A stretch of 24,000 bases of DNA from positions 37,283-61,282 of the forward strand of contig CAOKLO010000011.1 in assembly GCA_948469375.1 (NCBI GenBank), written 5' to 3'. Source of the DNA: an uncultured bacterium (GTDB taxonomy: Bacteria; Bacillota; Clostridia; Oscillospirales; Oscillospiraceae). Positions 2,586-22,443 of this stretch are shown piece after piece; the first letter of the stretch is position 1, and each line of letters begins with the position of its first letter. The notes beneath the pieces were generated by a model. That model searched no databases, was not told the DNA's origin, and was given only the letters and a program-made list of their open reading frames with translations. A program made the translations under genes and the position numbers.

Positions 2586-2587
2586 CG

Positions 2588-2613
2588 GTCAGGCGGGGTT
2601 ACTCCCGCCTGAC
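2588..2613. terminator. Bidirectional hairpin between convergent genes
   Basis: 10-bp stem GTCAGGCGGG / CCCGCCTGAC with loop GTTACT, followed by a T-rich run. It overlaps the last codons of the minus-strand ORF. Confidence 0.55.
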
Positions 2614-2834
2614 TTCTCTTTTCTCCGCTGTTTTTGCGCCGATTTCTTCTGACGCTTCGCGTCGATCTCATGCAGCCAGTCCTTGACCGGCGCTTTCCAC
2701 GGCTCACTTTTACTCGGAATATTTTTGATAAGGCTTCGGGGATTCAGCCCCAGCCGTTTGGCGAGGGCAATGTCTTCATTGTTCAGATGGCATTTCTGCT
2801 TTGCCTCCGCCCACTGCTGTTCACTGTATGCCAT
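2589..2834 (-). CDS. Small hypothetical protein (81 aa) with a basic C-terminal tail
   Basis: ORF track. GAGGGA lies 7 nt upstream of the ATG on the minus strand. No family recognised. Confidence 0.55.
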   Translation of the reverse strand: MAYSEQQWAEAKQKCHLNNEDIALAKRLGLNPRSLIKNIPSKSEPWKAPVKDWLHEIDAKRQKKSAQKQRRKEKSGGSNPA

Positions 2835-2907
2835 GCCGTTGTCCCTCGCTTCCGGTTTTTCCCATTATAGCACAGATTTTATCGAAATGGAATGGAGGAA
2901 TCTCAAC

Positions 2908-3825
2908 ATGAAGAAAAACCTGATTTACCAGCACTCCGGCCAATATGCCCAGGAGCATGACGAGCTGAAACAGTATTTCGCCTCTTTCAACGCTCTGCGA
3001 GACTGCAAGGAGGCCATTGAGCAGGCCATAGCCGATCACTACCACGACAACCGCCTGAACGATGGCGGGGCGAGGGAAGTGATCGCGCAGTTTGGCCTTG
3101 AGCGCACCATGTACGTCCTCGCTGCCACCGTCCAGGCCAAGGACAGCGATGGGCGCATTGACCAGGACAACAAGGCATGGGCGCGGGCGTTCCCGCTGGT
3201 GGTGGATGTAGATACCTTTGGGCGGGACCGGACAAAGGAACTGGAGCTTTACCGCGCCCACCCCGGTCTCATTGATCTGTTTGTGCATGAGGTCCGGGAT
3301 GAAGCGGCTATCTCCCGCCCCGTTTACCGGGGGACCTTCGATCAGGCAAAAGAGGCCGGGGAAGTACCGGAGTACAGAACCTCCCTTCGGGTCAATAAGC
3401 TCTGCCAGCGGGAGATCGAGCAGGCAGTCACCGAGGGCTGGGACGGGACGCACGTTGACCCGGATGCCGTCAAGGGAGTGCTGGAGCGGTTTGGCCCGGA
3501 ACGCCTTTCCTATGTGCTGGCAAACACCGTCCAGCAGAAGGAGTGGGAGGACCGCTTTTCCGGCGCTAACGTGTCGTGGGCCAAGACGGTCCCTATGCAC
3601 ATCTCCCCGGAGAAGCGCACTTCCTGCATCGTGAACAGCCACCCCGCCAAACTGGACGATTTTATCTCGACAGCGCGGCAGGAGATGGGGCGGATGGACA
3701 AGGAGCGTGGGCAGTCCGTTAAAGTCAAGCGCCCCTCCGTGCGGAAAAAACTGAGCGAGAAAGCGGACACATCCGCCACCCCCAAGCCGCCCGGAAAAAG
3801 CAAGGCCAAAGGGCAGGACCGCTGA
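2908..3825 (+). CDS. DUF3849-like ICE protein with an internal domain duplication
   Basis: SD GGAGGAA at 2894-2900 precedes ATG 2908 (MKKNLIYQHSG...). The track's start at 2683 is an unlikely extension. Two paralogous halves are visible: ...VIAQFGLERTMYVLAATVQ... and ...VLERFGPERLSYVLANTVQ.... The family name is from memory. Confidence 0.65.
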   Translation: MKKNLIYQHSGQYAQEHDELKQYFASFNALRDCKEAIEQAIADHYHDNRLNDGGAREVIAQFGLERTMYVLAATVQAKDSDGRIDQDNKAWARAFPLVVDVDTFGRDRTKELELYRAHPGLIDLFVHEVRDEAAISRPVYRGTFDQAKEAGEVPEYRTSLRVNKLCQREIEQAVTEGWDGTHVDPDAVKGVLERFGPERLSYVLANTVQQKEWEDRFSGANVSWAKTVPMHISPEKRTSCIVNSHPAKLDDFISTARQEMGRMDKERGQSVKVKRPSVRKKLSEKADTSATPKPPGKSKAKGQDR

Positions 3826-3827
3826 CC

Positions 3828-4166
3828 ATGGCGAAGCGAAAACGGGATGTGCCGCTCCTGTTCTGGGTGTCCCCGGAGGAAAAGGCTCTGATTCAGAAGA
3901 AAATGGAGCAGATCGGCACCACCAATCTCAGCGCCTACCTCCGCAAGATGGCCATTGACGGCTATGTGGTCAATCTGGAGCTGCCGGAACTGGGGGAGAT
4001 GGTCTCCCTGCTGCGCCGGTCCAGCAACAACCTCAACCAGCTCACCCGCCGCGTCCATGAGACGGGCCGGTTCTATGACGCTGATTTGGAGGACCTGCGC
4101 CAGAGCCAAGAAAAGCTCTGGGATGCCGCCAGCTCCATCGTGAAATCGCTGGCAAAGCTCCAGTAA
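3828..4166 (+). CDS. mobC: MobC-family relaxosome accessory protein
   Basis: The N-terminus is ribbon-helix-helix-like (LLFWVSPEEKALIQKKMEQIGTTNLSAYLRKMAIDGYV). The SNNLNQLTRRVHETG motif is typical of MobC. The ATG lies 2 nt after the upstream stop. Confidence 0.85.
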   Translation: MAKRKRDVPLLFWVSPEEKALIQKKMEQIGTTNLSAYLRKMAIDGYVVNLELPELGEMVSLLRRSSNNLNQLTRRVHETGRFYDADLEDLRQSQEKLWDAASSIVKSLAKLQ

Positions 4167-4191
4167 TCAACAACTTCAATACCGACTTCCA

Positions 4192-4217
4192 GGGGAGCGG
4201 CCATCGCTCTCCTTTTT
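4192..4217 (+). terminator. Rho-independent terminator after mobC
   Basis: Stem GGGGAGCG / CGCTCTCC (one G-U pair), loop GCCAT, then TTTTT. Confidence 0.6.
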
Positions 4218-4339
4218 CATTTCTCATTTCTGACAAGTTTGGAGGGAACTGCCATGCCTCCGCGCATCCGTGGCCCCCCTGGGGGAGCTACGCCCATTTC
4301 CAAACCCTATCAAACATCAAATTTTAAGGAGGAATTTCC

Positions 4340-7300
4340 ATGAAAACATTTCAGCTCAAAAAGAAGCTGTCCCTGCTGCTGGTCACGGCGCTGACCCTGG
4401 GCCAGCTCAGTGCCCCCGCGCTCGCCGCCGGGACTGCGGAAGCCGCCGTCAGCGAGGACGGCAAGATCACCACCATCACCACCGAGATCACCTGGACCAG
4501 CCCGGAGGGCGAGGACCCCGTGGTGGAGGGCGCGGTGGTCACGACCGAGACCACCGTTGTGGACGATGAGGGCCGCGTGGTCCAGGAGAGCGGCAGCGAG
4601 ACGGGCACTGAAACCACCGTCACCACGGACACGCAGACCGCCGCCCCCGTGGTGGAGGAAAAGGAGGCCGTAACCGAGACGGAGACCGGCGAAACGGTCA
4701 CTTCCGGGACCACCGGCGAGTTTGAAACGGTAGACAGCTCCACATCCTCCACCAGCGAGGCGGTTGACCGCGTTTTTCCTGGCGGGAGCGACATCACGGT
4801 TGACCTGACCCCCGGCAGTACCGCCACCGGGACAGCCGTGGTAGACCGGGAAGCTCTGGCGGGGCAGCTCGTCCGCCCCGATGCCGGAGACTGCGACATC
4901 ACGGACCCGGAGACCGGGGAGACCATCGGCCACAAAACTGTGACGGTGGAGGACGTTCTGGATGAGGACGGGGCCGTGATCGGCTATACGTCTACATCCA
5001 CCGTGGAGACCTCCGCCACCACCGCCCTCCCGGACAACATCTTCAGCGCCGAGCCTCCCGTGATGCCGGAACCCCAGGAGCCGGTCACGGACGCGGACGG
5101 CGTGACCACCAAAGTGGAGGTCCAGCCGGTCTATGATGATGCTGGCACCCTCACCGGCTACCAGACCATTGAGACGAAAATCAGCAGCACCGAGGCGGCA
5201 GCTTCCGAGATCGTCCTGCCCGACCGCCCCATTGAGGGCGAGACCACCGATGCGGAGACCGGAGAGGCCACCGCTGTCACGGTGACGGAGCTGTACGATG
5301 CCTCCGGCACCCTGACCGGCTATGAGGTCACGACAACCACCACTGACAGCGAGGGAAATGTCCGTACTGCGGTGGAGACCCTGCGCGGCACAAAGACCAC
5401 CAGCACCCTAACCGAAGTGACCGATGTGACGGTCACCACCGTGACCTTTACGGAGTTCACAGGCGGGGCCGTCACCACCACGACCAGGACCACCACCACC
5501 GAGACGAAGCGGATCGCCGCCAGCGACCGCACCGTTACCGCTGGAATGGGCAGTGTCACCGCCGGTAAAAATGACGGCATCCTTGAAACCAACGGCGTTC
5601 AGGCGGACGTGAAGGAGCCTGACGTGGGCAAAACGGACCAGAAAACCGATCTCTACCACCGTGCGGATAAGGACGGCGTGGAATTTGACCCGGACGGCTA
5701 TGGCTTCCAGTGGCTGGGCAAGTACGGCCTGGAGAGCGCCATCCGGGTGGATGCGGTCAAGACCAATGAGGACGGCACCGCTTCCTCCAGCGACCGCTGG
5801 CAGGCCCACCAGTATGTCCTGGTGGACAAGGACGGCAACGAGCACTACGTCTACTGCGCCGATTTCGCCGTCAGCCCCCAGGCGGGTTTCCGCTATGACA
5901 TGGAGAACGTGGAGGATGCCGGGTACTATGACAGCGAGGCGGCGGCGCATATCCGGGCTATCGCCCAGAAGGGCTACTGGGGAACCTCTGATGGGGCCGG
6001 GAGCCTGGACGCTGTGAAACAGATGATGGTGAACGCCTACAACAACGGCGAGATCGACTGGGGCAGCTATAACGGTATGGCTACCGCGTGGGGATTCAAC
6101 ACCTATCTCACAGACGGTATGGCCCTGGCGGCGACTCAGGCGGCAATCTGGACCTACGGAAACAGCGGCAGTCTGGCGATCGACCGGGAGGACCCCTTCA
6201 CCAGCTACTATCAGGCTACAACCGGAAAGAACTGGCGGGACCTGGACAGCCGGGAGTGGGCGCTGACAAAGGCACTCTACGACTACCTGATCGCTCAGAC
6301 GGAAGCGCCCACCAACAAAAACACCCTCATCAATGAGAACAATTTTGCTGCCAATGCCAGTCTGACTGTGGGCCAGCGTGATGAGGATGGCAAATATGAG
6401 GCCGACCTGACCTTCACCCTCGCCGTCATGCCCGACACGGAGAGTGACGATCTGCTGGTCCATGTCGTTGTGGGCGGCGAGATCGTGGAGACGCGGCGGC
6501 TGGCCGGAGACGATTCCGAGACCCAGTACGGCGTGATCCCCCGGAGCGAGGACGGTAGCTATACCCTCTCCGGGCTGAAGCTGGCGGACGGCGTGAATAT
6601 CGACCTTCAGCTCACCGGGACCCAGAACATCGGCGAGGGCGTGTACCTGTTCACATCCGAAGTCCGCACAGACCCGGTGGGCACTGATGAGAACGGGGAG
6701 CCGGTTTTTTCCTCCCAGACCTTTGTGGGCATCGAGAGCGGCAGGCAGTCTGTGGACCTGTCCGTCTCCCTCCATTTCACCGTCAATGAGGCCAGCGCCG
6801 AGATCGTCACGGACAACATCAGCGTGACCGAGCAGAAGGTGGATACCACTGAGACCAGCCGGACGGATACCTCCACGACCATCGAGGGCTGGACAGAAAC
6901 CGCCGTGACTGTCACCACGGTTCAGCAGAGTGACCGGGAGTGGGAGGTCACTTGGGAGAAGAATGATACTTATCCCGAGCCGGTTACGCCCGTTGAGCCG
7001 GAGGACCCCCAGCCGCCCGTGGACCCGGAACTGCCCGACACGCCGGATGTTCCCGATGTTTCGGAGAACCCCCTGGTTGTGGATATGCTGGGGCCGGAGG
7101 ACCCCGTGGAAACCCCCGATGAAGTGGAGATTCCCGATGTGGAAGTGCCCGCTGCGGACGTTCCCGATACGCCCGATGAGAACATCCCCGTTGAGGAAAT
7201 CCCGGATGATGACGTGCCCCTCTCCGATGTGCCGCAGACCGGCGACGCCTCCGGGATGTGGTGCGTCCTCCTGACGGCCTCCCTCGCTGGGCTGGGGATC

Positions 7301-7345
7301 ATGATCTGCCTGGAAATTCGGGACAGAAAGAGAACGAGTAACTGA
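4340..7345 (+). CDS. Cell-wall-anchored thioester-domain (TED/TQXA) adhesin
   Basis: SD AAGGAGG at 4326-4332. Signal peptide MKTFQLKKKLSLLLVTALTLGQLSAPALAAG. T/E-rich stalk. YVYCADF Cys506 (nt 5855-5857). AATQAAIW Gln600 (nt 6137-6139). Pro/Asp-rich spacer. VPQTG (nt 7229-7243), then a hydrophobic helix and an RDRKRTSN tail. Confidence 0.85.
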   Translation: MKTFQLKKKLSLLLVTALTLGQLSAPALAAGTAEAAVSEDGKITTITTEITWTSPEGEDPVVEGAVVTTETTVVDDEGRVVQESGSETGTETTVTTDTQTAAPVVEEKEAVTETETGETVTSGTTGEFETVDSSTSSTSEAVDRVFPGGSDITVDLTPGSTATGTAVVDREALAGQLVRPDAGDCDITDPETGETIGHKTVTVEDVLDEDGAVIGYTSTSTVETSATTALPDNIFSAEPPVMPEPQEPVTDADGVTTKVEVQPVYDDAGTLTGYQTIETKISSTEAAASEIVLPDRPIEGETTDAETGEATAVTVTELYDASGTLTGYEVTTTTTDSEGNVRTAVETLRGTKTTSTLTEVTDVTVTTVTFTEFTGGAVTTTTRTTTTETKRIAASDRTVTAGMGSVTAGKNDGILETNGVQADVKEPDVGKTDQKTDLYHRADKDGVEFDPDGYGFQWLGKYGLESAIRVDAVKTNEDGTASSSDRWQAHQYVLVDKDGNEHYVYCADFAVSPQAGFRYDMENVEDAGYYDSEAAAHIRAIAQKGYWGTSDGAGSLDAVKQMMVNAYNNGEIDWGSYNGMATAWGFNTYLTDGMALAATQAAIWTYGNSGSLAIDREDPFTSYYQATTGKNWRDLDSREWALTKALYDYLIAQTEAPTNKNTLINENNFAANASLTVGQRDEDGKYEADLTFTLAVMPDTESDDLLVHVVVGGEIVETRRLAGDDSETQYGVIPRSEDGSYTLSGLKLADGVNIDLQLTGTQNIGEGVYLFTSEVRTDPVGTDENGEPVFSSQTFVGIESGRQSVDLSVSLHFTVNEASAEIVTDNISVTEQKVDTTETSRTDTSTTIEGWTETAVTVTTVQQSDREWEVTWEKNDTYPEPVTPVEPEDPQPPVDPELPDTPDVPDVSENPLVVDMLGPEDPVETPDEVEIPDVEVPAADVPDTPDENIPVEEIPDDDVPLSDVPQTGDASGMWCVLLTASLAGLGIMICLEIRDRKRTSN

Positions 7346-7352
7346 CCGCACA

Positions 7353-7385
7353 GCCGGGGCCGGGTTATCTGGCCCCGGCGTTTTT
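7353..7385 (+). terminator. Terminator or attenuator between the adhesin and sortase genes
   Basis: 9-bp GC stem GCCGGGGCC / GGCCCCGGC followed by TTTTT. Confidence 0.65.
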
Positions 7386-7401
7386 GATAAGGAGACTGAC
7401 T

Positions 7402-8163
7402 ATGCGTATCAATCCCAGAAGATTTTTTGAGATTTTCTTCCTCGCGCTGCTGTGTGTCTGCCTGCTGATGCTCTGGTGGTACGGTACAGAGTGCTGGAGG
7501 GCGGGACAGCTTCACCAGGAGGCGGCGCTGCTAGCAGGCATCCCCGACCGTGCCTCCGATACATCAGAGGTGCTGTCTGACGGAACAAGCGCCGGGGCCG
7601 TCTCCGTTGGCCTGGACCTGTCCCCGCTGCGGGAGGTCAACGCCGACGTGGTGTGCTGGATCGAGATTCCCGGCGTTCTCTCCTATCCCGTCCTCCAGGG
7701 GGAGGACAATGCCTACTACCTCTCCCACGCCTGGGACGGCGAGGCGAACGCGGCGGGGGCCGTCTTCCTGGACTACCGGGCCAGCGCCGGTCTTACAGAT
7801 TTTCACACGCTCCTGTACGGTCACAGGATGCGAGACGGGTCCATGTTCGGCAGCTTGAAGCAGTACAGTGATGTCGGCTTCTGGCAGGAACATCCCAGCG
7901 TCTGCCTCTCCGATGAGGACGGCATCCGGCGGTATGATATTTTCGCCGCCTACGAAGTGGGGGTGGCGGAGATCGTCTACCGGCAGGACCTCTCCAGTGC
8001 GGAGGACCGGCTGGAGCTGATCCGGTTCGGCCTCGACAACTCCGTCATTGAGACGGGCATCGTGCCAACCGTCACGGACACGATCATCACCCTCTCCACC
8101 TGCACCGGCAGCGGACACAATGCCCGCTGGGTGGTCCAGGCGGTGCGGTGCCAGGAGGCATGA
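7402..8163 (+). CDS. srtB: Class B sortase
   Basis: SD AAGGAG at 7389-7394 precedes ATG 7402. N-terminal TM anchor. Catalytic-type motifs LLYGHRM (His), TLSTC (Cys) and a C-terminal ARWVVQAVR (Arg). Confidence 0.85.
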   Translation: MRINPRRFFEIFFLALLCVCLLMLWWYGTECWRAGQLHQEAALLAGIPDRASDTSEVLSDGTSAGAVSVGLDLSPLREVNADVVCWIEIPGVLSYPVLQGEDNAYYLSHAWDGEANAAGAVFLDYRASAGLTDFHTLLYGHRMRDGSMFGSLKQYSDVGFWQEHPSVCLSDEDGIRRYDIFAAYEVGVAEIVYRQDLSSAEDRLELIRFGLDNSVIETGIVPTVTDTIITLSTCTGSGHNARWVVQAVRCQEA

Positions 8164-8234
8164 CCGCCGCATCCTTGCAATTTTTCCGATGCTCCTGTAT
8201 GCTGATCTCAACAAATCGACAAGGAGTGATTGGA

Positions 8235-8522
8235 ATGAGGCTATTGCTGAAGGTCCTGGCTGCGCCGGTGATTGTGGCGCTGACGGTGTTCGTCTGGCTG
8301 TGCGTGGGAGTAGTCTACTGCGCCGGGATGGTGATGAGCGTGGCGGGGTGGATAGCGGCCCTCCTGGGCGTGGCGGTGATGCTGACCTACTCCGTCAAAA
8401 ACGGCATCGTCCTCCTGGTGATCGCGTTCCTGCTCAGCCCCATGGGACTGCCTGCGGCGGCGCTGTGGCTGCTGGGGAAGGTCCAGGATGTGCGGTACTT
8501 CATCCAGGATGCAGTATACTAA
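8235..8522 (+). CDS. Small multi-pass membrane protein (95 aa)
   Basis: AAGGAG at 8221-8226 precedes ATG 8235. Three hydrophobic segments are visible in the translation. It may belong to the small CD1845-like ICE membrane proteins (from memory, unverified). Confidence 0.55.
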   Translation: MRLLLKVLAAPVIVALTVFVWLCVGVVYCAGMVMSVAGWIAALLGVAVMLTYSVKNGIVLLVIAFLLSPMGLPAAALWLLGKVQDVRYFIQDAVY

Positions 8523-13288: not shown

Positions 13289-15676
13289 ATGAAGATCGTG
13301 AGCTGGAATGTAAATGGAATTGTCGCCTGCCGGAGAAAAGGCTTCTTGCAGTTTCTGAGGGACACACAACCGGATGTGATGTGCTGCCAGGAAATCAAAA
13401 CCCGCTGCGTACTGCGCACACCGGGTTATCATCAATTCTGGAATCCCGCAAAACGTCCAGGCTATTCCGGGACGCTTACTCTGACAAAACTGCTGCCGCT
13501 TTCTTGTTCGCTTGGTATGGGCATTGAAAAGTTTGACGATGAGGGAAGACTAATCACGCTTGAATACAAAAATTTTTTTGTTGTCAATGTATATGTCCCC
13601 AGTATTCATACCGGCTCAAAGCCGGAAAGGCCGGATTTTCGCTTGGAGTGGGACAATGCGCTGCGGGAGTATGTCTCGAAACTGAAAAAGCCCGTAGTCT
13701 TAGCGGGGGACTTTAACGCTACACGCAGCTACATAGACACCTATCCTGAGAACGGGAAAAATGAACCAGAACCGCCCTTTTTTTATTCAGAAGTGCGGGA
13801 GGGACTGGAGCGGCTCCTATCTACTGGATTAGTGGACGCTTTTCGGGTACTATACCCACGGCGAACGGGGGCCTATACATGGTGGGGGCCGAAGAACAAC
13901 GACCGGGCCGAAAACCGTGGTTCGCGATTGGACTACTTCCTTGTGTCTGGTGAAATACTTTCTTCTGTGCGAAGCGTTAAGTTTCACAAAGATACTCACG
14001 GTTCGGATCACTGCCCGATCTCTATGCTTTTCAATCCGGTTACGCCGAAGCTGGAAATGAGCGACAGAGATATGGTGGCAATATGGGCCTCCATCAACTG
14101 GGATACGCTGGAGGAAGTTCTTCTTTCGATGCAGCAGGATTTGGCCTATGCCGCATACAACCGGGAATGGGACAAGGTTGACCGTCTCCAAAATGAGCTG
14201 GTCCGCTCCTGGGCGGCGCGGGCGCTGGCTGTTCGCTCTACCCTGGACAAAAGCACCTTCCCAGGAGTTGACGGTGTTCGATGGACTACGGACGCACAGA
14301 AAGCGCGGGCCGCAGTGTCCCTGACCTCCAGAGGCTACCGCCCACTCCCATATCTGCATATGGAGCTGGAAGAAAACGGGAAGACGCGAACAAATCTTCT
14401 TCCCGCAATGCGGGATAAGGCCATGCAGATTTTATATTCCTACGCCCTTGACCCTGTTGCGGAATCTACAGCGGATCGCAAGTCCTTTTTCGCAAGAAGA
14501 GGACGCTCGGCGCTGGATGCACACGCATACCTCAGTCGAGACTTGAGTGGTGATAATCCACCAGACTATGTAGTCCTTATAGATGTACAATCTTTTTACG
14601 ACACGGTGGTTCATGACTGGCTGATAAAAAACATCCCAATGGATAAAACGATGCTGCGGAAGTTTTTGAAGGCTGGCATGGTAAAAGAGGGAGAGATGTT
14701 CCCAACGGACAAAGGGATGTCCATGGCCTCCAGTCTATCGTCTATCCTGGGGAATATGATCTTGGACGGTTTGCAGTCTTATCTCTACGACCATCTTTAC
14801 CCCTCTGGGGGCGTTGACTATAGAAACGGAAATCTCCACAGATTCGCTGATGATATGGCTATTACCGCATATGGCTATGAACAGGCGGAGAAGATTATGG
14901 CGATTACCTCTGAATTTCTGGCACAGCGGGGCCTGCGGGTACACCCTGATAAATCCTGCATTGCAAATGTCAATGCAGGATTTGACTATATCGGCCGGAA
15001 CTATAAACGTGTTGACGGCGTTCTGACAGTGACACCGGCAGACAGCTCTATCAGGAAAATAGAACATGAGTTGGAAAAACTCATCATGAACTTTACAGGA
15101 ACCCAGAGAGCTTTGATTGAGAAGATCAATCAAAAGCTGAAAGGATGGGGGAGCTATCACCGCGTGGAGGATTCCTACATGGAATTCCGCCATATTGACG
15201 CTGTTGTTGAGGGGCTGCTGGTGAAAAAGATGTGTGAAAAATATCCCAGCTGGCACCGGCAGACCGTTTTGAATAAGTTCTGGACAAAAGATGGAATGAC
15301 ATATGTTTTTATACTGCCGACCGACCCGTCCGTCAGGGTTGTTCAGCTAGCGCAGTTGCCGATTGTGCGTCACAAACCATGCAGAGTTAAGTTCAACCCC
15401 TATTTGGACCAGGATTATCATATCTACCTCAAGCACCGGCGCGATGCGCAAAAAAGCAACGGAGCTTATCGGGCGGTATGGACCCGTCAGAGTGGACGCT
15501 GTGCCTATTGCAATCAAAGGATGCTTGCCGATCAAGAGATAGAACTTGTAGAAAAAAACATTGGGCAGGGATGGAAAATAAAAAACCTGATCTACATACA
15601 CCGGCGTTGCAGCTATCAGGTATGTTTTTCTTCAAACGGAGCGGAGGGAGATCCTATTGACGCAGGGAACTTATGA
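13289..15676 (+). CDS. Fusion protein: ExoIII/ExoA/APE-type (EEP) endonuclease + group-II-intron-like reverse transcriptase + degenerate C-terminal CxxC/HNH-like finger
   Basis: SD AAAGGAGG at 13276-13283.
- EEP signature: SWNVNG, CQEIK, NVYVP, GDFNAT, RLDYFLVS, GSDHCP.
- RT blocks: FPGVDGVRW, LIDVQSFYD, GMSMASSLSSILGNMILD, FADD (nt 14843-14854), FDYIGRNY.
- Thumb/X: KLKGWGSYHR.
- C-terminal finger: CAYC (from nt 15500) ... IHRRC.
- One uninterrupted frame of 795 aa. Confidence 0.85.
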   Translation: MKIVSWNVNGIVACRRKGFLQFLRDTQPDVMCCQEIKTRCVLRTPGYHQFWNPAKRPGYSGTLTLTKLLPLSCSLGMGIEKFDDEGRLITLEYKNFFVVNVYVPSIHTGSKPERPDFRLEWDNALREYVSKLKKPVVLAGDFNATRSYIDTYPENGKNEPEPPFFYSEVREGLERLLSTGLVDAFRVLYPRRTGAYTWWGPKNNDRAENRGSRLDYFLVSGEILSSVRSVKFHKDTHGSDHCPISMLFNPVTPKLEMSDRDMVAIWASINWDTLEEVLLSMQQDLAYAAYNREWDKVDRLQNELVRSWAARALAVRSTLDKSTFPGVDGVRWTTDAQKARAAVSLTSRGYRPLPYLHMELEENGKTRTNLLPAMRDKAMQILYSYALDPVAESTADRKSFFARRGRSALDAHAYLSRDLSGDNPPDYVVLIDVQSFYDTVVHDWLIKNIPMDKTMLRKFLKAGMVKEGEMFPTDKGMSMASSLSSILGNMILDGLQSYLYDHLYPSGGVDYRNGNLHRFADDMAITAYGYEQAEKIMAITSEFLAQRGLRVHPDKSCIANVNAGFDYIGRNYKRVDGVLTVTPADSSIRKIEHELEKLIMNFTGTQRALIEKINQKLKGWGSYHRVEDSYMEFRHIDAVVEGLLVKKMCEKYPSWHRQTVLNKFWTKDGMTYVFILPTDPSVRVVQLAQLPIVRHKPCRVKFNPYLDQDYHIYLKHRRDAQKSNGAYRAVWTRQSGRCAYCNQRMLADQEIELVEKNIGQGWKIKNLIYIHRRCSYQVCFSSNGAEGDPIDAGNL

Positions 15677-15837
15677 ATGAGGATATAGCCTGAGTTTCGG
15701 TATATATCATCTCGCATATTCCCCGAAACCGTTGGAAATTGTGCGCTCAGAGCAAAAGCGGGCATGTTTGGAAATAAGGCCGTAATCCCTTGCAAGATAA
15801 CGGATTCAGAAAAAACAACGAAACTCGGACATAGGTC

Positions 15838-15866
15838 TTGACTTCCAAAGTAAGTTCTGATAAAAT
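15838..15866 (+). promoter_or_regulatory. Extended -10 promoter of the RiPP operon
   Basis: TTGACT at 15838-15843, a 17-nt spacer ending in TGA, then TAAAAT at 15861-15866. Confidence 0.55.
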
Positions 15867-15944
15867 GATACAGAAATTTACAGAAGAGTATAATCAGCAC
15901 AAAATATCCACAGTAAAACACAGTGCAAGAGAGGGGGGGGTATA

Positions 15945-16214
15945 ATGAAATGTCGTATTGATTGCAAGGTATGTTGGCAACGAATAAAAAGTCAAATTTA
16001 TATCATCCGGGATGATAAGTTTATTCTTTTGAATGAATCGGCTTCATTGATATGGATGGGGATTTATCAAGGAAAGACTACTACAGAAATCGCCAAAGAT
16101 TTATACAACCTCTATGGTACTGATTTCTCTGTTATTTTAGATGATGTAAGTGGAACAGTAAATGATTTAATTTCTGCCGGGGTATTAACTTATGGAAATG
16201 TTCAATTCTCTTAA
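15945..16214 (+). CDS. PqqD-family peptide chaperone (stand-alone RRE)
   Basis: 89 aa. The pattern LLNESASLIWMGIYQGKTTTEIAKDLYNLYG...DDVSGTVNDLISAGVL matches the PqqD/RRE fold signature. Confidence 0.8.
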   Translation: MKCRIDCKVCWQRIKSQIYIIRDDKFILLNESASLIWMGIYQGKTTTEIAKDLYNLYGTDFSVILDDVSGTVNDLISAGVLTYGNVQFS

Positions 16215-17211
16215 GGAGATATCTAGTTATACGCAAGCTCACCAAGTGTTATGGAATGCGCAAATTGAACTTCTTACATTGTGTAATTTTGCTTGCCAAC
16301 ATTGCTATATACCTAATAGAACATCCAAAGGACTTCCTTTGTTGGTAATTAAAGACTTAGCTACTGCATTTTTTAACATGGGTACATTTAATATAACATT
16401 AACCGGCGGAGAGCCCTTATTGCGAGATGATATATTCGAAATTATTGAAGAATTTCGGAATAAGGGATTAAGAGTTAAGCTTTATAGCAATGCGTCTTTA
16501 CTAGATAGAGATAAATGTATACGATTAAAGGAATTGGGAATTAGTCAGTTTTCAACAACTATATTTTCCCTAAATCCTCAAATTAATGATTGTATTACAT
16601 GCAAAAATGATTCTTTAAATTTTATTCTACCTAATATAGCATTGTTGGAAGAATTATGTGTGCCAGTTCAAATAAAAATGCCAATTCTGAAAATGAATTA
16701 CGAGTCTTATGAAGAGCTTAAAACATTCTGTGGTGCGCATAATTATAGCTTTTTTCCAAGTCCTAATATTTCCCCCAAAACCGACGGTGATTCTTCACCA
16801 CTGAAATTTGAACTAGCTGAACGAGAATTTGCGAAAATGATTCGCAAAATAGATGCAGAACACACAAAAAATGTGACTGGGGATCAAAATGCTTTTAGAA
16901 AAGAAGATATCATTTGTCATTCGTTGAATAATTCGGTTTTTATTAATAGTATCGGCGATGTTTTTCCCTGTATCTCATGGCCAGTAAAGTTAGGGAATAT
17001 TTTTGAAAAGTCAATAGCGGAAATTTGGAACACTTCTGATGTATTACAATACTTAAGGAGCCTAAAGAAATCACATATGAAGTTCTGCGGAAAATGTGAA
17101 TATTCTACGCATTGTACAGTTTGTCCGGGAGATTCCATGATGGATGGTGATATGTTGGGGTGTTCACATCTACAAAAAAAATGTGCAAAAGCCATTATGG
17201 GACTTATATAG
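16192..17211 (+). CDS. Radical SAM / SPASM-domain peptide maturase
   Basis: CNFACQHCY (Cx3Cx2C). SPASM signature: CHSLNNSVFINSIGDVFPC (Cx12Gx4C), CGKCEYSTHCTVC, and a distal Cys. Overlaps the PqqD-like gene by 23 nt. Confidence 0.9.
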   Translation: MEMFNSLKEISSYTQAHQVLWNAQIELLTLCNFACQHCYIPNRTSKGLPLLVIKDLATAFFNMGTFNITLTGGEPLLRDDIFEIIEEFRNKGLRVKLYSNASLLDRDKCIRLKELGISQFSTTIFSLNPQINDCITCKNDSLNFILPNIALLEELCVPVQIKMPILKMNYESYEELKTFCGAHNYSFFPSPNISPKTDGDSSPLKFELAEREFAKMIRKIDAEHTKNVTGDQNAFRKEDIICHSLNNSVFINSIGDVFPCISWPVKLGNIFEKSIAEIWNTSDVLQYLRSLKKSHMKFCGKCEYSTHCTVCPGDSMMDGDMLGCSHLQKKCAKAIMGLI

Positions 17212-17549
17212 GAAATGAAAGACGTAAGTTCATTTTACAAATCTTAAGTCCCAAATAGCAAATAATTTGGAAAAGGGAGAGAATGTGTAGATTAGAAATT
17301 TTGGTACAGCTATAGTAACGTTAGTCCCTCTATAGAACTGATCTTGGCCTTCAACCACGACCGAAATTTCTTGCCATTTCGCTTTTTCTGAGCTTCTCGT
17401 AGTATATTATAGGGATGAGCAAACGCGAGTTTTGCAAAAGCACAGTGCAGTGGTGTTTATTTTCTCTGCAAGTGCTATATGTCGTATCATATCGTAAGCA
17501 AATTCTAGTTTTGCCTGTCCCTATAAAATTTTAAAAGGAGGTGTAAAAC

Positions 17550-17663
17550 ATGAAGTATGAAAAGCCTGCAATTCTCGTCAACAAAACGATGCCGCGTGCG
17601 GCTGTTGGGGCCGATTGTGGTCACGGCAACAAGTGCAATGGCCCGAAAGATGATCATGACTAG
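17550..17663 (+). CDS. RiPP precursor peptide, 37 aa: MKYEKPAILVNKTMPRAAVGADCGHGNKCNGPKDDHD
   Basis: It falls below the length cut-off of the ORF track. SD AAGGAGGTG at 17535-17543 lies 6 nt before the ATG. Stop is TAG at 17661-17663. It sits between the maturase and the exporter genes. Confidence 0.7.
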   Translation: MKYEKPAILVNKTMPRAAVGADCGHGNKCNGPKDDHD

Positions 17664-17674
17664 GTAAAGGAGAT

Positions 17675-17710
17675 GGCAGTCAGTATATAAAATACTGACT
17701 GCCAGTTTTA
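17675..17710 (+). terminator. Hairpin with T-run directly after the precursor gene (terminator or attenuator)
   Basis: 11-bp stem GGCAGTCAGTA / TACTGACTGCC, 7-nt loop, then AGTTTTA. Confidence 0.6.
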
Positions 17711-17713
17711 AAT

Positions 17714-19498
17714 ATGATAAAGGTTGTACTTAAAAATCTTCGCTATGTTCGCTATGCGATACAAGCTGACAAAATCAGTGCCTGGTCAATTATTTTGCTG
17801 AGTATGGCGATAAGCAGTATGTCAGCAGCGAAAATACTTGCAATTGGGCAATTACTTGATGATGTTGCCTTGTCACAATCCTTTGGATTCAGACGCATGA
17901 TTGTGAATACGTGCCTCGTCGTTTTCGTTTATTTGATGGAATACGTATTGTCTGCACTTCAGAACTATCTAAGGTTCAGAATTTGCATTCGCTTGAACAA
18001 CCAGATGGAAGATAAATTTTTCCTCAAGCTATCTGTTGTTCAGTATTCTTTACTGGAAGATAAAAAGAACAGCGATTTGATTTTTCATGTAAAAGATGGC
18101 ATTGAAAAAAGATTTTCGGACGGGTTTTCGCATGTGATAGAATTCTTTTCTTTTGCTTTTAGAGCTGCAGGAGTACTTGGGGTAATAATCACAAAGAATA
18201 TAAGCACAGGTATGATTCTTCTGCTACTCTTTGTTAGCTTGGGCCCCTTATATCAAAAATTAGGGGAGGTCAACTATCAAGCATATGCGGAAGCGAATAA
18301 AGCATTTCGCCGTGCCAAAAGCTATCTCCAAATCCTTTCAGACCGGGAGTACGCGAATGAGCGAGAAGTATTTGGCTATGATGCCTTTTTTAATAAAAAG
18401 TGGAGAACTTACTATCAAACCGCAATCGAAAAAGAAAGAGGTGCATCTAAACAGAATCATTTTAAGATTCTATTGGTAACTATTACCATAACATTTATGA
18501 CTGCATTATTGAGTTGTATCATGATTCCTGCATTGCTCAGAGAATCGCTCTCTCTTGGAGTTTATGTGCTGGTTGTGACACAATTGTTCAATTTGGTACA
18601 TTTTATGTCGTGGAATTTTTCTGATATCACGGAAAATCTTTCAGAAAATGCATTATATCTGGACGATTTTGATCGGTTTATGGATTTGAACGATACTACG
18701 CGGGCGGAGGGAGGAATCCTGCCTTCTCAAAAGCACATAAACATCCGAATCGAAGACCTGTCCTTTCGTTATCCAGGCTGTACGGACTATGCATTAAAGA
18801 ACGTTTCTTTTGAATTCAAAGAGGGAGTACATTATGCCATAGTCGGAAAAAATGGCGCTGGAAAAACTACGCTTGTAAAATTGCTGTTGGGTCTATATGA
18901 CGAATATGACGGGCAGATTCTGATCAATGGCGTAGACATCCGAACGCTTTCAAAGGCCACTCTCTCTTCCGTTTTTTCCGTAGTATTCCAGGATTATGGG
19001 AGATACGCGCTGACACTAAAAGAAAATGTTTTTCTGACGGATTTTGACGATCCACAGAAAGCGGCACAAGCGGAACGTATTTTGTCTCAACTGGGCTTTT
19101 GGGAGGGCCTTTGCCATCAGGAAAACAGAATGGATATTAGTCTCGGTAAACTTGACGAGGGCGGTATCGACTTATCGGGAGGACAGTGGCAAAAGCTTGC
19201 TATTGCAAGGGGGCTCCTGTCCGATGCTCTTGTATACATATTGGATGAGCCCTCCAGTTCGCTGGACCCAATCAGTGAAAGGCATTTATACGATCTATAT
19301 GACAAGGTTTTTAAAGAATATACAACCATTACGATTACCCATAGATTAGGAAATACAAAGGGGCAGGATGAAATTTTGGTTTTAGATGGTGGAACGCTTG
19401 CGGAATTTGGGTCCCATGAAGCATTGATGAAACGGCATTCCATATACTATGAAATGTTTACCCACCAAAGGAGTTGGTACCATGCGGAAAGTTCATAA
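17714..19498 (+). CDS. ABC exporter, fused permease and ATPase
   Basis: N-terminal TM region. Walker A GKNGAGKTT, signature LSGGQWQKLA, Walker B VYILDEPSS. No obvious SD before the ATG. Confidence 0.9.
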   Translation: MIKVVLKNLRYVRYAIQADKISAWSIILLSMAISSMSAAKILAIGQLLDDVALSQSFGFRRMIVNTCLVVFVYLMEYVLSALQNYLRFRICIRLNNQMEDKFFLKLSVVQYSLLEDKKNSDLIFHVKDGIEKRFSDGFSHVIEFFSFAFRAAGVLGVIITKNISTGMILLLLFVSLGPLYQKLGEVNYQAYAEANKAFRRAKSYLQILSDREYANEREVFGYDAFFNKKWRTYYQTAIEKERGASKQNHFKILLVTITITFMTALLSCIMIPALLRESLSLGVYVLVVTQLFNLVHFMSWNFSDITENLSENALYLDDFDRFMDLNDTTRAEGGILPSQKHINIRIEDLSFRYPGCTDYALKNVSFEFKEGVHYAIVGKNGAGKTTLVKLLLGLYDEYDGQILINGVDIRTLSKATLSSVFSVVFQDYGRYALTLKENVFLTDFDDPQKAAQAERILSQLGFWEGLCHQENRMDISLGKLDEGGIDLSGGQWQKLAIARGLLSDALVYILDEPSSSLDPISERHLYDLYDKVFKEYTTITITHRLGNTKGQDEILVLDGGTLAEFGSHEALMKRHSIYYEMFTHQRSWYHAESS

Positions 19499-21275
19499 GA
19501 AGACGTATAACATACGAAGAGTGTTTGGGGAGGTTGTGAGGGTTTCCCCTCTTCAATTTTTTCTACAATACGTCCTGGCTGTTGTGAGTTCTGTCTTCCT
19601 AGGCTTATTTATCGTACAATTGCAAAATGTATTTGATCATGCGGCAATCGTAGTTGAGAGCGCGTCTGCGGATGGCGTCTGGAGCCTGCTTTGTTCCTTA
19701 CTCATCCTGTTCCTGTACAAAGCTGGCTCGGAGAGCTTGGAAATCGCCAACGGATATCTTGGAAATGATTTTTATAACCGTTGCGCAGCATATTTTCTGG
19801 ATCTATATAATCAAAATATCGCCAAGATGCGCGCAATCACATTTGAAGAGAATGACAATTTAAAGCTCTATCGCAACGCATTGACGGGAGCAACTTCAGC
19901 TAGAGGAATGTTGCATGTCATCATGGATATATTTACACTTTATATCCCTTATTTCCTCACGATCATTTTCTATTTGGCAAAACAGGACGCCAGCCTGCTT
20001 GCCATTGTCCCACTTGTCGCCATACCGATCTTTATTACGAATCAAATTAAGAAGAAGAATTACCAGAGACTACATAAACATACGATCCATCCAAAACGGA
20101 AAAAAGAAGAATACACAAAATACCTTTCCGAATTTCCGTTTCTTAAGGAAGTTCGTGTCAAGGAGGCGTTCCGGTTCTTTTATGGAAAATATCTGTGCGC
20201 AAGGTCAGAATACAACAAACTTTGTCTGTCCACAAATGATCAAGAATTCATGCTAAACCTTGGCACAAAAATGATTACCTTGCTTGGTTTTATAACGATT
20301 TTGGGCCTTCTGATCGAGCGGCTAGCTACAGGGGCAATCAGCATTGGTGCCTTTGGCGCTATCTTTTATTCGTTGGACGACATGTATAGTTTGATGGAAG
20401 AAATGCTTATATCGAGAATCGAAACATATCATAAGGGGCTACCTGCTTTGAAATCATTTATTCAATTTGTGAATGGCGCATATACAGAGCAGGGGGAAGC
20501 AACAGGAACGGCGGGGCGCATTCCCTTTAAAAAGATGTCGTTGGAAAGCATTTCATTTATTTATCCAAATACAACTCGAATGGTCCTCAAAAATATCAGC
20601 TTTACCATTCATCGGAATGATAAAATCGCAATCGTAGGCTATAACGGGAGCGGGAAGAGCACATTGGCCAAAATCTTGCTTGGGCTATACAGTCCAACCG
20701 AGGGCACCATTTTGATAAATGACGACCCGGGTATAAGATCCGGCCCTCAAAATGCCAGCGTCATGTTTCAGCAATTTAATCGCTACAAAGAGACAGTTTT
20801 TAATAATATCTGGATCAGTGAGGCAACGGGCGATGAATCGGCTGGGGAGCAGGCGAAAAAAATAGCTTCTGAACGATTGAGGCAAATAAACCTGAATCAT
20901 TCCGTGCACGTAGAAGATACGCTGGACATATTATGCGCACGTGAATTTGGAGGCATCGACCTTTCCGGTGGACAATGGCAAAAATTAGCGACCGCGAGAA
21001 TGCTATATCGCGACCGTGACTTTATAGTATTGGACGAGCCGACAGCTGAAATCGATCCAGTATCAGAATCTCAGATGTTTCGTCTGTTTGAGAGCGAAAT
21101 GAGGAATCGGACGGCAATCATTATTACGCACAGAATGACCTCCATTCGTTTCTGTAACAAAATAATTGTCTTGCGGGATGGAGCGGTCGATGCCATCGGA
21201 GACCACGAAACTTTAATGAAAACTTCAGACCTTTACTACGCGTTGTATCACTCGATTGAGGAGAGATACCATTGA
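19482..21275 (+). CDS. ABC exporter, fused permease and ATPase (second subunit)
   Basis: AAAGGAG at 19467-19473 precedes ATG 19482, which overlaps the upstream gene by 17 nt. Walker A GYNGSGKST, signature LSGGQWQKLA, Walker B FIVLDEPTA. Confidence 0.9.
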   Translation: MRKVHKKTYNIRRVFGEVVRVSPLQFFLQYVLAVVSSVFLGLFIVQLQNVFDHAAIVVESASADGVWSLLCSLLILFLYKAGSESLEIANGYLGNDFYNRCAAYFLDLYNQNIAKMRAITFEENDNLKLYRNALTGATSARGMLHVIMDIFTLYIPYFLTIIFYLAKQDASLLAIVPLVAIPIFITNQIKKKNYQRLHKHTIHPKRKKEEYTKYLSEFPFLKEVRVKEAFRFFYGKYLCARSEYNKLCLSTNDQEFMLNLGTKMITLLGFITILGLLIERLATGAISIGAFGAIFYSLDDMYSLMEEMLISRIETYHKGLPALKSFIQFVNGAYTEQGEATGTAGRIPFKKMSLESISFIYPNTTRMVLKNISFTIHRNDKIAIVGYNGSGKSTLAKILLGLYSPTEGTILINDDPGIRSGPQNASVMFQQFNRYKETVFNNIWISEATGDESAGEQAKKIASERLRQINLNHSVHVEDTLDILCAREFGGIDLSGGQWQKLATARMLYRDRDFIVLDEPTAEIDPVSESQMFRLFESEMRNRTAIIITHRMTSIRFCNKIIVLRDGAVDAIGDHETLMKTSDLYYALYHSIEERYH

Positions 21276-21333: not shown

Positions 21334-22443
21334 ATGACAATCGGAAGGAAAGACCATGCCGAGTGCCTTATGGACAACCAAGATCAGTTTTTCTTTTACG
21401 CGAATAGTCACTTGCGGAGGGTGGATTTCATCTTGGTCCACATCTCTCAATGGGGTGAGATACGGATGGCTCACTATATGAAAGTCAGCACGGAAATCTA
21501 CCAAGTGTATCTCAAGTATATAGCTCCAGAGGACATACACGTCTATTCTATTGACGAGGTGTTCATGGATGTTACAAACTATCTTGCCACCTACGGCCTA
21601 TCACCCCGGCAGCTTGCAATGAAGATGATTCTTGATGTTCTTGAGACAACCGGCATTACCGCTACAGCGGGCATCGGGACGAACCTATATCTCTGTAAGA
21701 TCGCAATGGACATTTGGGCAAAGCACATTCAACCGGACGAAAACGGTGTCCGCATTGCTGAACTGGATGAGATGAGCTATCGCCGCAACCTGTGGGACCA
21801 TCGGCCACTCACCGACTTCTGGCGTGTAGGCAAAGGCTACGCAAAGAAGCTGGAGGCCAACGGACTTTACACGATGGGGGACATTGCGCGGTGTTCCACC
21901 GGCAAGCCTACGGAATATTACAATGAGGATTTGCTATATAAGCTCTTTGGCGTGAATGCAGAATTGTTGATAGATCACGCCTGGGGATGGGAACCTTGTA
22001 CTATTGGTGACATCAAGGCATATAGGCCAGAGAGCAGCAGTACCGGTTCAGGGCAAGTATTACAGTATCCATATCCGTTCGCAAAGGCCAAGCTAGTAGT
22101 ACATGAGATGGCTGACCAGCTATCGCTTGACCTTGTAGACAAGGGCCTTGTGACCGATCAGTTGACGCTGACCATTGGATATGACATTGATAATTTGCGA
22201 GATCAGGAGATCAGTAGCACTTATCAGGGAGATGTAACCGTAGACCGGTATGGTCGCGCCGTACCCAAACAGGCCCACGGAACAGAAACTATGGATGTAT
22301 ACACGTCCTCTACCAAGCAGATCGTTCGTGCGGCACTGGCGCTTATGATGATATTATCAACCTTCCCCATCATGTCTCAGACCGGCATCCGCAAATGCCA
22401 ATTAGGGATAGGGCGGCGCAGTTCTCGCCGTTTGCGGCGCTAA
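21334..22443 (+). pseudogene. Y-family (DinB/UmuC-like) DNA polymerase remnant, truncated at both ends
   Basis: Recognisable similarity starts near RMAHYMKVSTEIY (about nt 21466). It includes the SIDEVFMDVT catalytic block, the ATAGIGTNLYLCKIA motif and an HhH region. The N-terminal block carrying the first catalytic Asp is absent. The C-terminus runs into unrelated residues after TSSTKQIVRAALAL. Confidence 0.7.

Follow-up and report, generated by a model that had tools for sequence, protein, structure and literature searches.

Several described systems in which a radical S-adenosylmethionine (radical-SAM) enzyme with a SPASM domain modifies a ribosomally synthesized peptide come close to the locus considered here, a gene for a peptide of 37 amino acids (aa) at positions 17550-17663, with its neighbours, in a stretch of 24,000 nucleotides (nt) from an uncultured member of the Oscillospiraceae (contig CAOKLO010000011.1); this whole stretch is called the window below. 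Sactipeptide and ranthipeptide systems (AlbA/SboA, SkfB/SkfA, CteB/CteA, PapB/PapA) combine a SPASM maturase, a short leader-core peptide with conserved reactive Cys and ATP-binding cassette (ABC) export genes, and their AlbA/SkfB/CteB/PapB-type enzymes of about 410-470 aa carry a fused N-terminal recognition domain. For pyrroloquinoline quinone (PQQ; PqqA/PqqD/PqqE) and mycofactocin (MftA/MftB/MftC), a peptide of not more than 40 aa is accompanied by a stand-alone chaperone of the PqqD family and a compact SPASM enzyme, and the leader of PqqA contains K-P followed by hydrophobic residues. In streptococci, the radical-SAM groups of peptides synthesized ribosomally and then modified post-translationally (RiPPs), the RaS-RiPPs SSH, CGx, CGG and NxxC, are encoded in small clusters in Firmicutes that combine a precursor with a radical-SAM enzyme and a transporter; the SSH, CGx and CGG subfamilies are listed as uncharacterised (PMC13361665). 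S-C thioethers are the product of most SPASM maturases with Cys-containing cores as substrates, as is known for AlbA, SkfB, CteB, PapB, NxxcB, GggB and QmpB (PMC9389541). Our analysis shows that 17550-17663 is a genuine conserved gene; with good confidence, it encodes the substrate peptide of the adjoining radical-SAM enzyme and represents an uncharacterised radical-SAM RiPP family. The family is new, but it is built in the conventional way, radical-SAM RiPP clusters being a known kind.

The gene is translated into MKYEKPAILVNKTMPRAAVGADCGHGNKCNGPKDDHD, with two cysteines, C23 and C29, and gene calls for exactly this peptide were found in 2268 index blocks, which represent at least 1000 contigs. 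A preliminary description of the locus, made from the letters alone, had reported the open reading frame (ORF), the Shine-Dalgarno (SD) sequence AAGGAGGTG at a spacing of 6 nt and the 37-aa product with two Cys, and we find all of these as described. It had also called the gene unannotated; no functional name is indeed given, but the window ORF is picked up by gene callers, and the homologue at locus L088 carries the label 'hypothetical protein'. The statement that no named RiPP was recognised agrees with our searches, in which the peptide had no match in NCBIfam and Pfam even at E <= 10 and its core strings were found in no paper by literature searches. Moreover, the description had regarded the peptide as a RiPP precursor tied to the adjacent maturase, and loss of the ORF beside homologous maturases as the observation that would speak against it. 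Related small ORFs are, however, kept beside the radical-SAM gene in 13 homologous clusters, the enzymes being 34-67% identical, so that this objection falls away. At the fetched loci the small ORF adjoins the enzyme everywhere but at L001, where no convincing precursor was found, and in 12 of 12 fetched loci the precursor ORFs have an SD sequence of the GGAG or GGAGG type. The P0173 cluster was not fetched and its precursor was taken from the protein search only; the L105 locus ends near the gene in the PqqD position.

The core CGHGNKCNGPKD is almost entirely kept in the five closest relatives, and this through synonymous changes. Over the 12 codons of the core, window and L088 differ by eight synonymous and no non-synonymous substitutions, window and L092 by six synonymous and one non-synonymous, and this mainly synonymous change shows purifying selection on the translated peptide. 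When 1.84 billion proteins were searched with phmmer, no more than two short relatives were added, each containing CG(H/G)GNKCNGPKD; two other matches were rejected as repeat-protein artefacts. A pattern scan of metagenome DNA for KCNGPKD returned 80 loci, two of them real, namely L111 (identical to the window) and L145 (of the L088 type); the remaining ones were discarded as chance matches. Among the matches listed from a contig scan with a generic pattern derived from the enzyme alignment, only L001 and L002 were close. Variation of the window peptide itself was also seen. A 46-aa read-through form (...DDHDQVKEMAVSI; proteins P0122 and P0123) occurs on 113 contigs, its extension corresponding to TAG 17661-17663 read as Gln and running into the 5' arm of the hairpin that follows the gene, and single-residue variants with one occurrence each include G24D, D22A, G31A and H36P.

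When the more distant precursors (Table 1) are included, family-wide conservation is limited to Cys-x(1-5)-Cys-x-Gly, usually followed by Lys, Arg or Pro-Lys. Between the two cysteines no residue is conserved throughout the family, and the cysteines are the only side chains kept family-wide; aromatic residues are missing from the core in the close group. Four precursors (L093, L097, L103, L105) stop at CNGR, CNGK or CRGK, that is just past the second Cys, so residues beyond approximately +3 cannot be essential acceptors, and in these four D34 has no counterpart. The five closest relatives retain N27, and the L093 type (C-E-N-T-N-N-C) likewise has Asn at position +4 from its first Cys, but such an Asn is missing in L101, L105, L106, L095 and L002. 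Near the N-terminus, a leader of the form Y-x-K-P-x-hydrophobic, with K-P followed by hydrophobic residues, occurs in nine of the 14 precursors, and L101 has S-P at this place.

The 339-aa maturase contains the radical-SAM motif C31-x3-C35-x2-C38, and its set of radical-SAM and SPASM cysteines is complete. Among its relatives, about 24 at 36-67% identity, the SPASM cysteines C242, C260, C299, C302, C308 and C311 are invariant, C324 is present in 22 of 23 and C180 is kept in 20 of 23. The best NCBIfam scores were obtained with GeoRSP (112 bits, cut-off 400) and AhbD (111 bits, cut-off 500), followed by NirJ2. Other families also stayed far below their cut-offs: AlbA (56.7 vs 850), StsB (60.3 vs 625), PapB NF047865 (41.3 vs 340), MftC (60 vs 265) and PqqE (49.7 vs 381), with WgkB also far below. 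Five relatives were tested in the same way; four were likewise below every NCBIfam cut-off and the fifth, P0007, gave nothing at E <= 1e-25. The best sequence matches in the PDB were SkfB (E = 1e-7) and SuiB, and the AlphaFold model, with a predicted local distance difference test score of 91.3, had SuiB, SkfB, CteB, PqqE and anSME as nearest solved folds at template-modelling (TM) scores of 0.6-0.73. These fold neighbours span peptide-modifying SPASM enzymes of several chemistries and do not discriminate the reaction. Judged by sequence and model, the maturase is thus a peptide-modifying SPASM enzyme of an uncurated clade, whose chemistry is told by neither its fold nor its sequence.

Since the maturase has no N-terminal recognition domain, the recognition element is found as a separate PqqD-family protein of 89 aa, which also gave weak NCBIfam matches to the PqqD proteins of lasso peptides and of PQQ. 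In 11 of the 13 homologous loci a small protein is encoded directly upstream of the radical-SAM gene, with a Pfam PqqD match of some strength in six. The clusters with an MKKLVKK-type leader (L093, L097, L103) have such a protein as well, but it gives no Pfam PqqD match, which would fit a joint change of leader and recognition protein; L106 is an exception.

Annotation of the enzyme gene itself deserves a comment. In L081-L086, of which the DNA is 99.8-100% identical to the window (100% in L082, L084 and L086), the start predicted for the radical-SAM gene is too late by 76 codons (263 aa) or by 49 codons (290 aa), and both predictions lose the C-x3-C-x2-C motif, an artefact of annotation that could give the cluster a defective appearance. 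We considered a pseudogene as the source of the 263-aa calls and rejected it, since the 339-aa frame is open in the window and the DNA shows 100% identity to it. One otherwise identical copy, L087 (JGI 3300038382), is without 477 nt in the radical-SAM gene (window approximately 16469-16945); precursor and exporters are kept in it.

How might these components act together? We propose that the separate PqqD-type protein would bind the N-terminal Y-x-K-P-x-hydrophobic-hydrophobic leader in the form of a beta-strand, in the manner of PqqD with PqqA and of MftB with MftA. The C-terminal core from C23 to G31, with the Cys-x(1-5)-Cys-x-Gly motif, would thereby be presented to the SPASM enzyme, which may use the two invariant cysteines to make one or more intramolecular thioether rings, and the two ABC half-transporters would export the product. 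The cluster encodes no protease, so leader removal has no candidate enzyme there. Thioether formation at the two invariant cysteines is our best guess, though a tentative one. Because no acceptor side chain is conserved, C-alpha links of the sactionine type would be likelier than links to Asp or Asn side chains. Several points weigh against this proposal. None of the profiles that fit the maturase best is that of a known thioether synthase; they are of the AhbD, NirJ and GeoRSP types, and their scores stay far under the cut-offs. C180 could be a fourth ligand of auxiliary cluster I, and an open site for a substrate thiolate can then not be assumed. Finally, we infer the reaction wholly from comparisons of this kind.

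Other explanations must be weighed against these proposals. A gene so short and without family match might be taken for a chance ORF that is not expressed, but its positional conservation beside the enzyme and the synonymous-dominated change in the core effectively refute this, and its probability is negligible. It is also very improbable that the peptide gives rise to an intracellular redox cofactor like PqqA or MftA instead of being exported. The same three-part layout of short peptide, separate PqqD and SPASM radical-SAM enzyme and the PqqA-like K-P leader would suit such a role; however, the PqqE and MftC scores given above are far below cut-off, the peptide has no Glu/Tyr pair and no C-terminal Val-Tyr, further tailoring genes are missing, and the cluster is mobile-element cargo with ABC exporter genes in or beside all 12 fetched homologous clusters. 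The preliminary description had likened the N-terminus of the peptide to leaders of SCIFF/ranthipeptide-type substrates (SCIFF, six cysteines in forty-five residues) and had seen potential acceptors in C-x3-N and C-x4-D-D, which would mean beta- or gamma-thioethers of Cys to Asn/Asp (C23-N27, C29-D34/D35) like those of PapB at C-x3-D. Both sequences are present in the window peptide, N27 and the Asn at +4 extend to the relatives mentioned above, Cys-to-Asn beta-thioethers are known from NxxcB (PMC9389541), and variable spacing is tolerated by PapB (PMC9413430). But there is no match to SCIFF precursors at E <= 10, two Cys stand against the six needed, the PapB score is far below its cut-off, D34 is absent from four relatives and the +4 Asn from five. 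The proposed acceptors are at most traits of the closest group, only Cys-x(1-5)-Cys-x-Gly being kept family-wide, and we regard a SCIFF/ranthipeptide assignment as improbable.

A different chemistry at Cys-x-Gly-x-(K/R) is conceivable as well, either an anSME-like oxidation of Cys to formylglycine or thioaldehyde, possibly followed by condensation, or the use of the peptide as a thiol/His metal-binding molecule. The sulfatase maturation motif is C-x-(P/A)-x-R, and C-N-G-P-K, C-N-G-R and C-R-G-K are loosely like it; furthermore, anSME is among the structural neighbours (TM 0.66), no acceptor is conserved, and for metal binding Cys and His are enriched, although the metallothionein match of the L095 peptide is at chance level (E = 0.06). 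The motif match is weak, however, as Gly replaces Pro/Ala and Lys is accepted beside Arg, the sequence in L095 and L002 is C-S-G-S without a basic residue, and the structural neighbours cover every chemistry, which leaves this explanation quite improbable. More room must be given to the view that Cys-x(1-5)-Cys-x-Gly is the substrate of a radical-SAM reaction undescribed for RiPPs, either another Cys-centred change or a new ring topology; this would yield a small acidic peptide with Cys and His, perhaps a metal binder or a signal, spread between bacteria on a highly prevalent mobile element. Such a reaction is suggested by the position of the motif, often at the very C-terminus and without a conserved acceptor, but we consider it rather unlikely and keep thioether formation as the preferred reading.

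The features of the cluster and the precursors of the homologous loci are compiled in Table 1.

Table 1. Features of the precursor locus with their positions in the window, followed by the precursor peptides of homologous clusters
Feature	Position	Strand	Remarks
Promoter-like site TTGACT, 17 nt, TG-TAAAAT	15838..15866	+	79 nt upstream of PqqD-like gene; consensus match only, candidate operon promoter
PqqD-family protein, 89 aa, stand-alone RiPP recognition element	15945..16214	+	Predicted leader-binding chaperone; Pfam PqqD PF05402, 36.3 bits vs gathering 23.4
Radical-SAM/SPASM peptide maturase, 339 aa	16192..17211	+	No N-terminal recognition domain; Pfam Radical_SAM PF04055, SPASM PF13186; overlaps end of PqqD gene
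Maturase-precursor spacer, specific to window element	17212..17534	+	Gap of 338 nt (17212-17549) with the ribosome-binding region
Precursor SD sequence AAGGAGGTG	17535..17543	+	6-nt spacer TAAAAC to ATG
Precursor peptide gene	17550..17663	+	37 aa plus stop; ATG 17550, TAG 17661-17663
Leader motif Y3-E-K-P-A-I-L-V10	17556..17579	+	Family pattern Y-x-K-P-x-hydrophobic-hydrophobic; presumed PqqD docking strand (putative binding)
Core motif C23-G-H-G-N-K-C29-N-G31	17616..17642	+	Family invariant Cys-x(1-5)-Cys-x-Gly; presumed modification site
Second SD-like element AAAGGAG	17666..17672	+	1 nt 5' of hairpin; only such site upstream of first ABC gene
Hairpin, perfect 13-bp stem, 5-nt loop	17674..17704	+	Arms 17674-17686 / 17692-17704; then GTTTTAAAT, then ABC start codon
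ABC half-transporter 1, 594 aa	17714..19498	+	No C39 peptidase domain; Pfam ABC_tran, weak ABC_membrane; homologues align up to this ATG
ABC half-transporter 2, 608 aa	19449..21275	+	No peptidase domain; callers start at about 19482; overlaps ABC half-transporter 1, presumed heterodimer partner
L100 precursor			MIYEKPQILVSKNGPVNEIMCGHGNRCNGPKDSHSKQ
P0173 precursor			MSYEKPKILVSKTDPVYEIMCGHGNKCNGPKDEHKNVSMS
L088 precursor			MKYEKPEVVVNSQKPDAEVMCGHGNKCNGPKDTHSSIM
L098 precursor			MEYEKPEVVKTTNEPVAETMCARGNKCNGPKDTHVSIM
L092 precursor			MKKYVKPIVKVSKKPPITVMCGGGNKCNGPKDDHAIH
L101 precursor, C-terminal part			...MYVSPSINEIGKVTYIITMCKGSTCNGRQRSNSIN
L105 precursor			MKYNKPVLIELVELSLDTQPCDGQCRGK
L093 precursor			MKKLVKKLAKKKAFVSFYYCENTNNCNGR; enzyme 41% identical
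L097 precursor			MRKLVKRITSKKKMVSFYYCENTNNCNGK
L103 precursor			MKKLVKKIAARKALVSFYYCENTNNCNGK
L106 precursor			MFIIELLRATFGAQTYAQHAACPPCRGKNN
L095 precursor			MRTYKKPQVLVQKIKKKEEIVQRCRCSGSTTHGPGPTNS
L002 precursor (Anaerococcus), C-terminal part			...VFSKPVVYKGETKVVHVVCKKAACSGSSSHITISKLDKATKNKAS; enzyme 34% identical

The candidate promoter agrees with the consensus at 10 of 12 positions and has in addition the TG of an extended -10 element. Between maturase and precursor the distance is only 22-60 nt in L088, L098, L100 and L092, compared with 338 nt in the window. This spacer had no Rfam match and no coding signal, and similarity to it was found only in identical copies; its fold has a z-score of -2.3, and an imperfect long-range helix of 17393-17423 with 17510-17540 overlaps the ribosome-binding site (RBS) of the precursor. 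It could be a regulatory 5' region or the remnant of an insertion. Rfam gave nothing at gathering scores and only noise at E <= 1, thus no riboswitch, leader RNA or group II intron RNA. The first ABC half-transporter matched MsbA, CydC and bacteriocin-exporter-like NCBIfam models, all below cut-off. In nine of the 13 homologous loci, two paired ABC genes come after the cluster; there is one such gene in L095 and one, located upstream, in L002.

The hairpin between precursor and exporters was a further subject of the preliminary description, which had reported an attenuator-like 11-bp hairpin with a T-run at 17675-17710 and had called the arrangement classic for an excess of precursor over transporter. 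The hairpin is real, but its stem has 13 bp and the tail GTTTTAAATA only four T. It starts ten bases past the precursor stop, has six GC pairs in the stem and an energy of -20.7 kcal/mol alone; in its 76-nt context the energy is -23.7 kcal/mol (z = -5.0, none of 200 shuffles as stable). It is present only once in the window and does not belong to a dispersed repeat. A terminator scan passes it at a minimum of five T in eight, and the tail has four consecutive U. Among the 13 loci folded at this place, nine have a hairpin of -16 to -27 kcal/mol that begins 1-24 nt past the precursor stop. The stem sequences are unrelated between loci, and at L095 the hairpin is followed by the enzyme gene, not by an exporter; L095 and L002 have hairpins of canonical terminator form, with U-runs, but most of the hairpins are without a U-tract. 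The part of the attenuator claim that holds is therefore the recurrent hairpin after the precursor; the part that does not is its classic form, as the precursor is not the first gene of the operon but lies after the enzyme genes, and the U-tract is short in the window and missing from most close relatives. Altogether, the hairpin is linked to the precursor and probably functional, and in the close group it is probably not a textbook terminator.

Hairpins after the structural gene are found in bacteriocin and lantibiotic operons (nisA-nisB, sboA-albA, pepA) and are credited there with a surplus of precursor mRNA, by leaky termination or by protection of the 3' end. The window resembles these operons in its inverted repeat directly after the precursor gene and before the export genes. 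It differs from them in that the precursor comes after the enzyme genes, so that the hairpin sets the exporter apart from recognition protein, enzyme and precursor. In addition, its U-tract is weak, and the exporter starts 9 nt past the stem, with the only SD-like element placed before the stem. A plausible and, in our opinion, the best reading is precursor-linked RNA control by a leaky terminator or a 3'-end stabiliser. The hairpin past the stop codon would then act at the RNA level and keep precursor-containing transcripts above exporter transcripts; as the precursor sits after the enzyme genes, the favoured transcripts would be those of recognition protein, enzyme and precursor over the exporter. 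Three observations weaken this reading. L100, L088, L098, L101 and L105 have not more than three U in the eight bases after the stem and the window four, and such short U-tracts in the window and its close relatives make efficient intrinsic termination doubtful. The precursor lies downstream of the enzyme genes, where termination would not enrich the precursor alone, and the 338-nt spacer between maturase and precursor gave no match to a promoter consensus.

The position of the SD-like element allows another function. The hairpin might mainly aid translation of the exporter by looping out approximately 31 nt, which would bring AAAGGAG within approximately 10 nt of the start codon at 17714; split ribosome-binding sites of this type are known from genes 38 and 25 of phage T4. 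The window, L100, L088 and L098 each have an SD-like element (AAGGAG, GGGAG, CGGAG) at a distance of 1-6 nt before the stem. In these four the conserved ABC start comes 9-10 nt past the stem, the spacer containing no SD, so that the geometry is kept although the stem sequences differ. However, in L092, L101 and L105 the hairpin is followed by a normal SD, which means that the layout is not general, L095 and L002 have the canonical terminators already mentioned, and the SD-like element is possibly a coincidence in purine-rich intergenic DNA. A split RBS is therefore possible, though fairly unlikely, and RNA control linked to the precursor remains our preferred reading of the hairpin.

Some homologous clusters carry additional genes. 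Those with a YYCENTNNCNG(R/K) precursor (L093, L094, L097, L103) encode a Peptidase_S8-DUF1611 fusion and a small PP-binding-like protein upstream of the gene in the PqqD position, and L093 and L094 a B12-binding radical-SAM enzyme in addition; these may be tailoring or leader-removal genes that the window cluster lacks. Genes of quorum-sensing type adjoin several relatives: L106 has AgrB with a 62-aa ORF at 1323-2106, L002 a 305-aa helix-turn-helix (HTH) protein on the reverse strand at 7486-8403 that reads as Rgg-like, and L088 and L101 upstream HTH proteins of 605-613 aa with a faint TPR match in L101. Beside the window cluster, neither an rgg-like regulator nor an rgg/shp pair was seen in its ORFs and domain scans.

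The genes surrounding the cluster encode a helicase-related protein, a DUF3849 protein, NikA/MobC, a thioester-domain surface protein, a sortase, a MobA/VirD2 relaxase and an HTH regulator, and in longer copies of the element a serine recombinase follows. From these surroundings, we conclude that the RiPP cluster is cargo of an integrative (conjugative or integrative) mobile element. Over 5.4 kb, several independent metagenome assemblies show 100% identity with the window; collections of plasmids and phages gave no match to the cluster or the spacer. The GC content is 33-43% in the cluster region (window 15001-21000), compared to 50-63% in the DNA around it and 54-64% in the backbone of the element (window 1-8000), and this sharp break implies that the cargo was acquired from a low-GC donor.

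Directly upstream of the cluster, at 13289-15676 (+), lies an ORF of 795 aa in which an N-terminal exodeoxyribonuclease III/EEP nuclease is fused to a reverse transcriptase (RT)/maturase of the group II intron type. The nuclease domain scores 214 bits with TIGR00633, above the cut-off, and the RT part contains RVT_N, RVT_1 and GIIM domains with 201 bits vs a cut-off of 300 for TIGR04416. Rfam detected no group II intron RNA around this ORF, and PADLOC gave only generic RT/DRT-like matches. In six longer copies, among which two different left contexts occur, the ORF likewise lies immediately upstream of the cluster. Nuclease followed by RT is the domain order of APE-type long interspersed nuclear elements (LINEs); in bacteria such a fusion seems unusual, and a quick literature search found no description of it. 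On the other side, directly after the ABC genes, an ORF similar to Y-family polymerases (21334-22443, +) matches the IMS domain only from profile position 66 and may be N-terminally divergent or truncated.

If our reading is true, the window contains a new radical-SAM RiPP family with an unusually small core of two cysteines. The enzyme lies outside every curated maturase family, which makes new chemistry possible but does not indicate it. Uncharacterised radical-SAM RiPP clusters are numerous, and among them the present one is minimal, easily tested and very widespread; with components of only 89, 339 and 37 aa it is suited to heterologous reconstitution. Its prevalence on a mobile element means that the product may be a widely shared competitive or signalling factor. 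Furthermore, truncated enzyme calls together with an unnamed precursor show that automated mining can miss or misjudge such a cluster.

Generally, the features expected of a radical-SAM/SPASM RiPP system are present, that is a co-conserved small ORF with an RBS, C-x3-C-x2-C together with SPASM, and a PqqD-like element, but in each test of membership in a curated family both peptide and enzyme of the window fell outside. With the sactipeptides and ranthipeptides the cluster shares the SPASM maturase, the short leader-core peptide with conserved Cys and the ABC export genes, and SkfB and CteB are among the nearest matches of its maturase in sequence and fold. In contrast to these systems, however, its enzyme is shorter and is accompanied by a separate PqqD, its peptide has only two Cys and no conserved acceptor, and a cross-link is only predicted here; the AlbA and StsB/SkfB family scores are not reached, and the conserved Cys-x3-Asp/Glu (or Thr) pairs of ranthipeptides are not found in the family. 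The precursors of the CLI_3235 bacteriocins (TIGR04065) come into view through the L093-type cousin, which scores 20 bits vs 26 and shares C-x5-C-N-G with the window peptide, but the window peptide itself has no TIGR04065 match, and no CLI_3235 maturase model is among the enzyme matches listed (best 25; E <= 1e-25 for relatives). The PQQ and mycofactocin systems have the same peptide size, stand-alone chaperone and compact enzyme, and PqqE is among the top fold matches of the maturase. Unlike them, the window core has neither the Glu-x3-Tyr of PqqA nor the C-terminal Val-Tyr of MftA, so their core chemistry cannot be shared, and exporters take the place of cofactor-tailoring enzymes. The small size and composition of the streptococcal RaS-RiPP clusters are likewise found here, and the peptide of the distant cousin L002 gives a subthreshold match to the SSH motif (28.6 vs 45 bits). 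The window peptide matched no RaS-RiPP model, including SSH-motif/KIS NF050043 and NF050044, and its cluster, in contrast to the streptococcal ones, has no adjoining rgg/shp pair and travels as mobile-element cargo. Taken together, the cluster is closest to PQQ and mycofactocin in architecture, to sactipeptides and ranthipeptides in likely chemistry, and to the RaS-RiPPs of Firmicutes in ecology.

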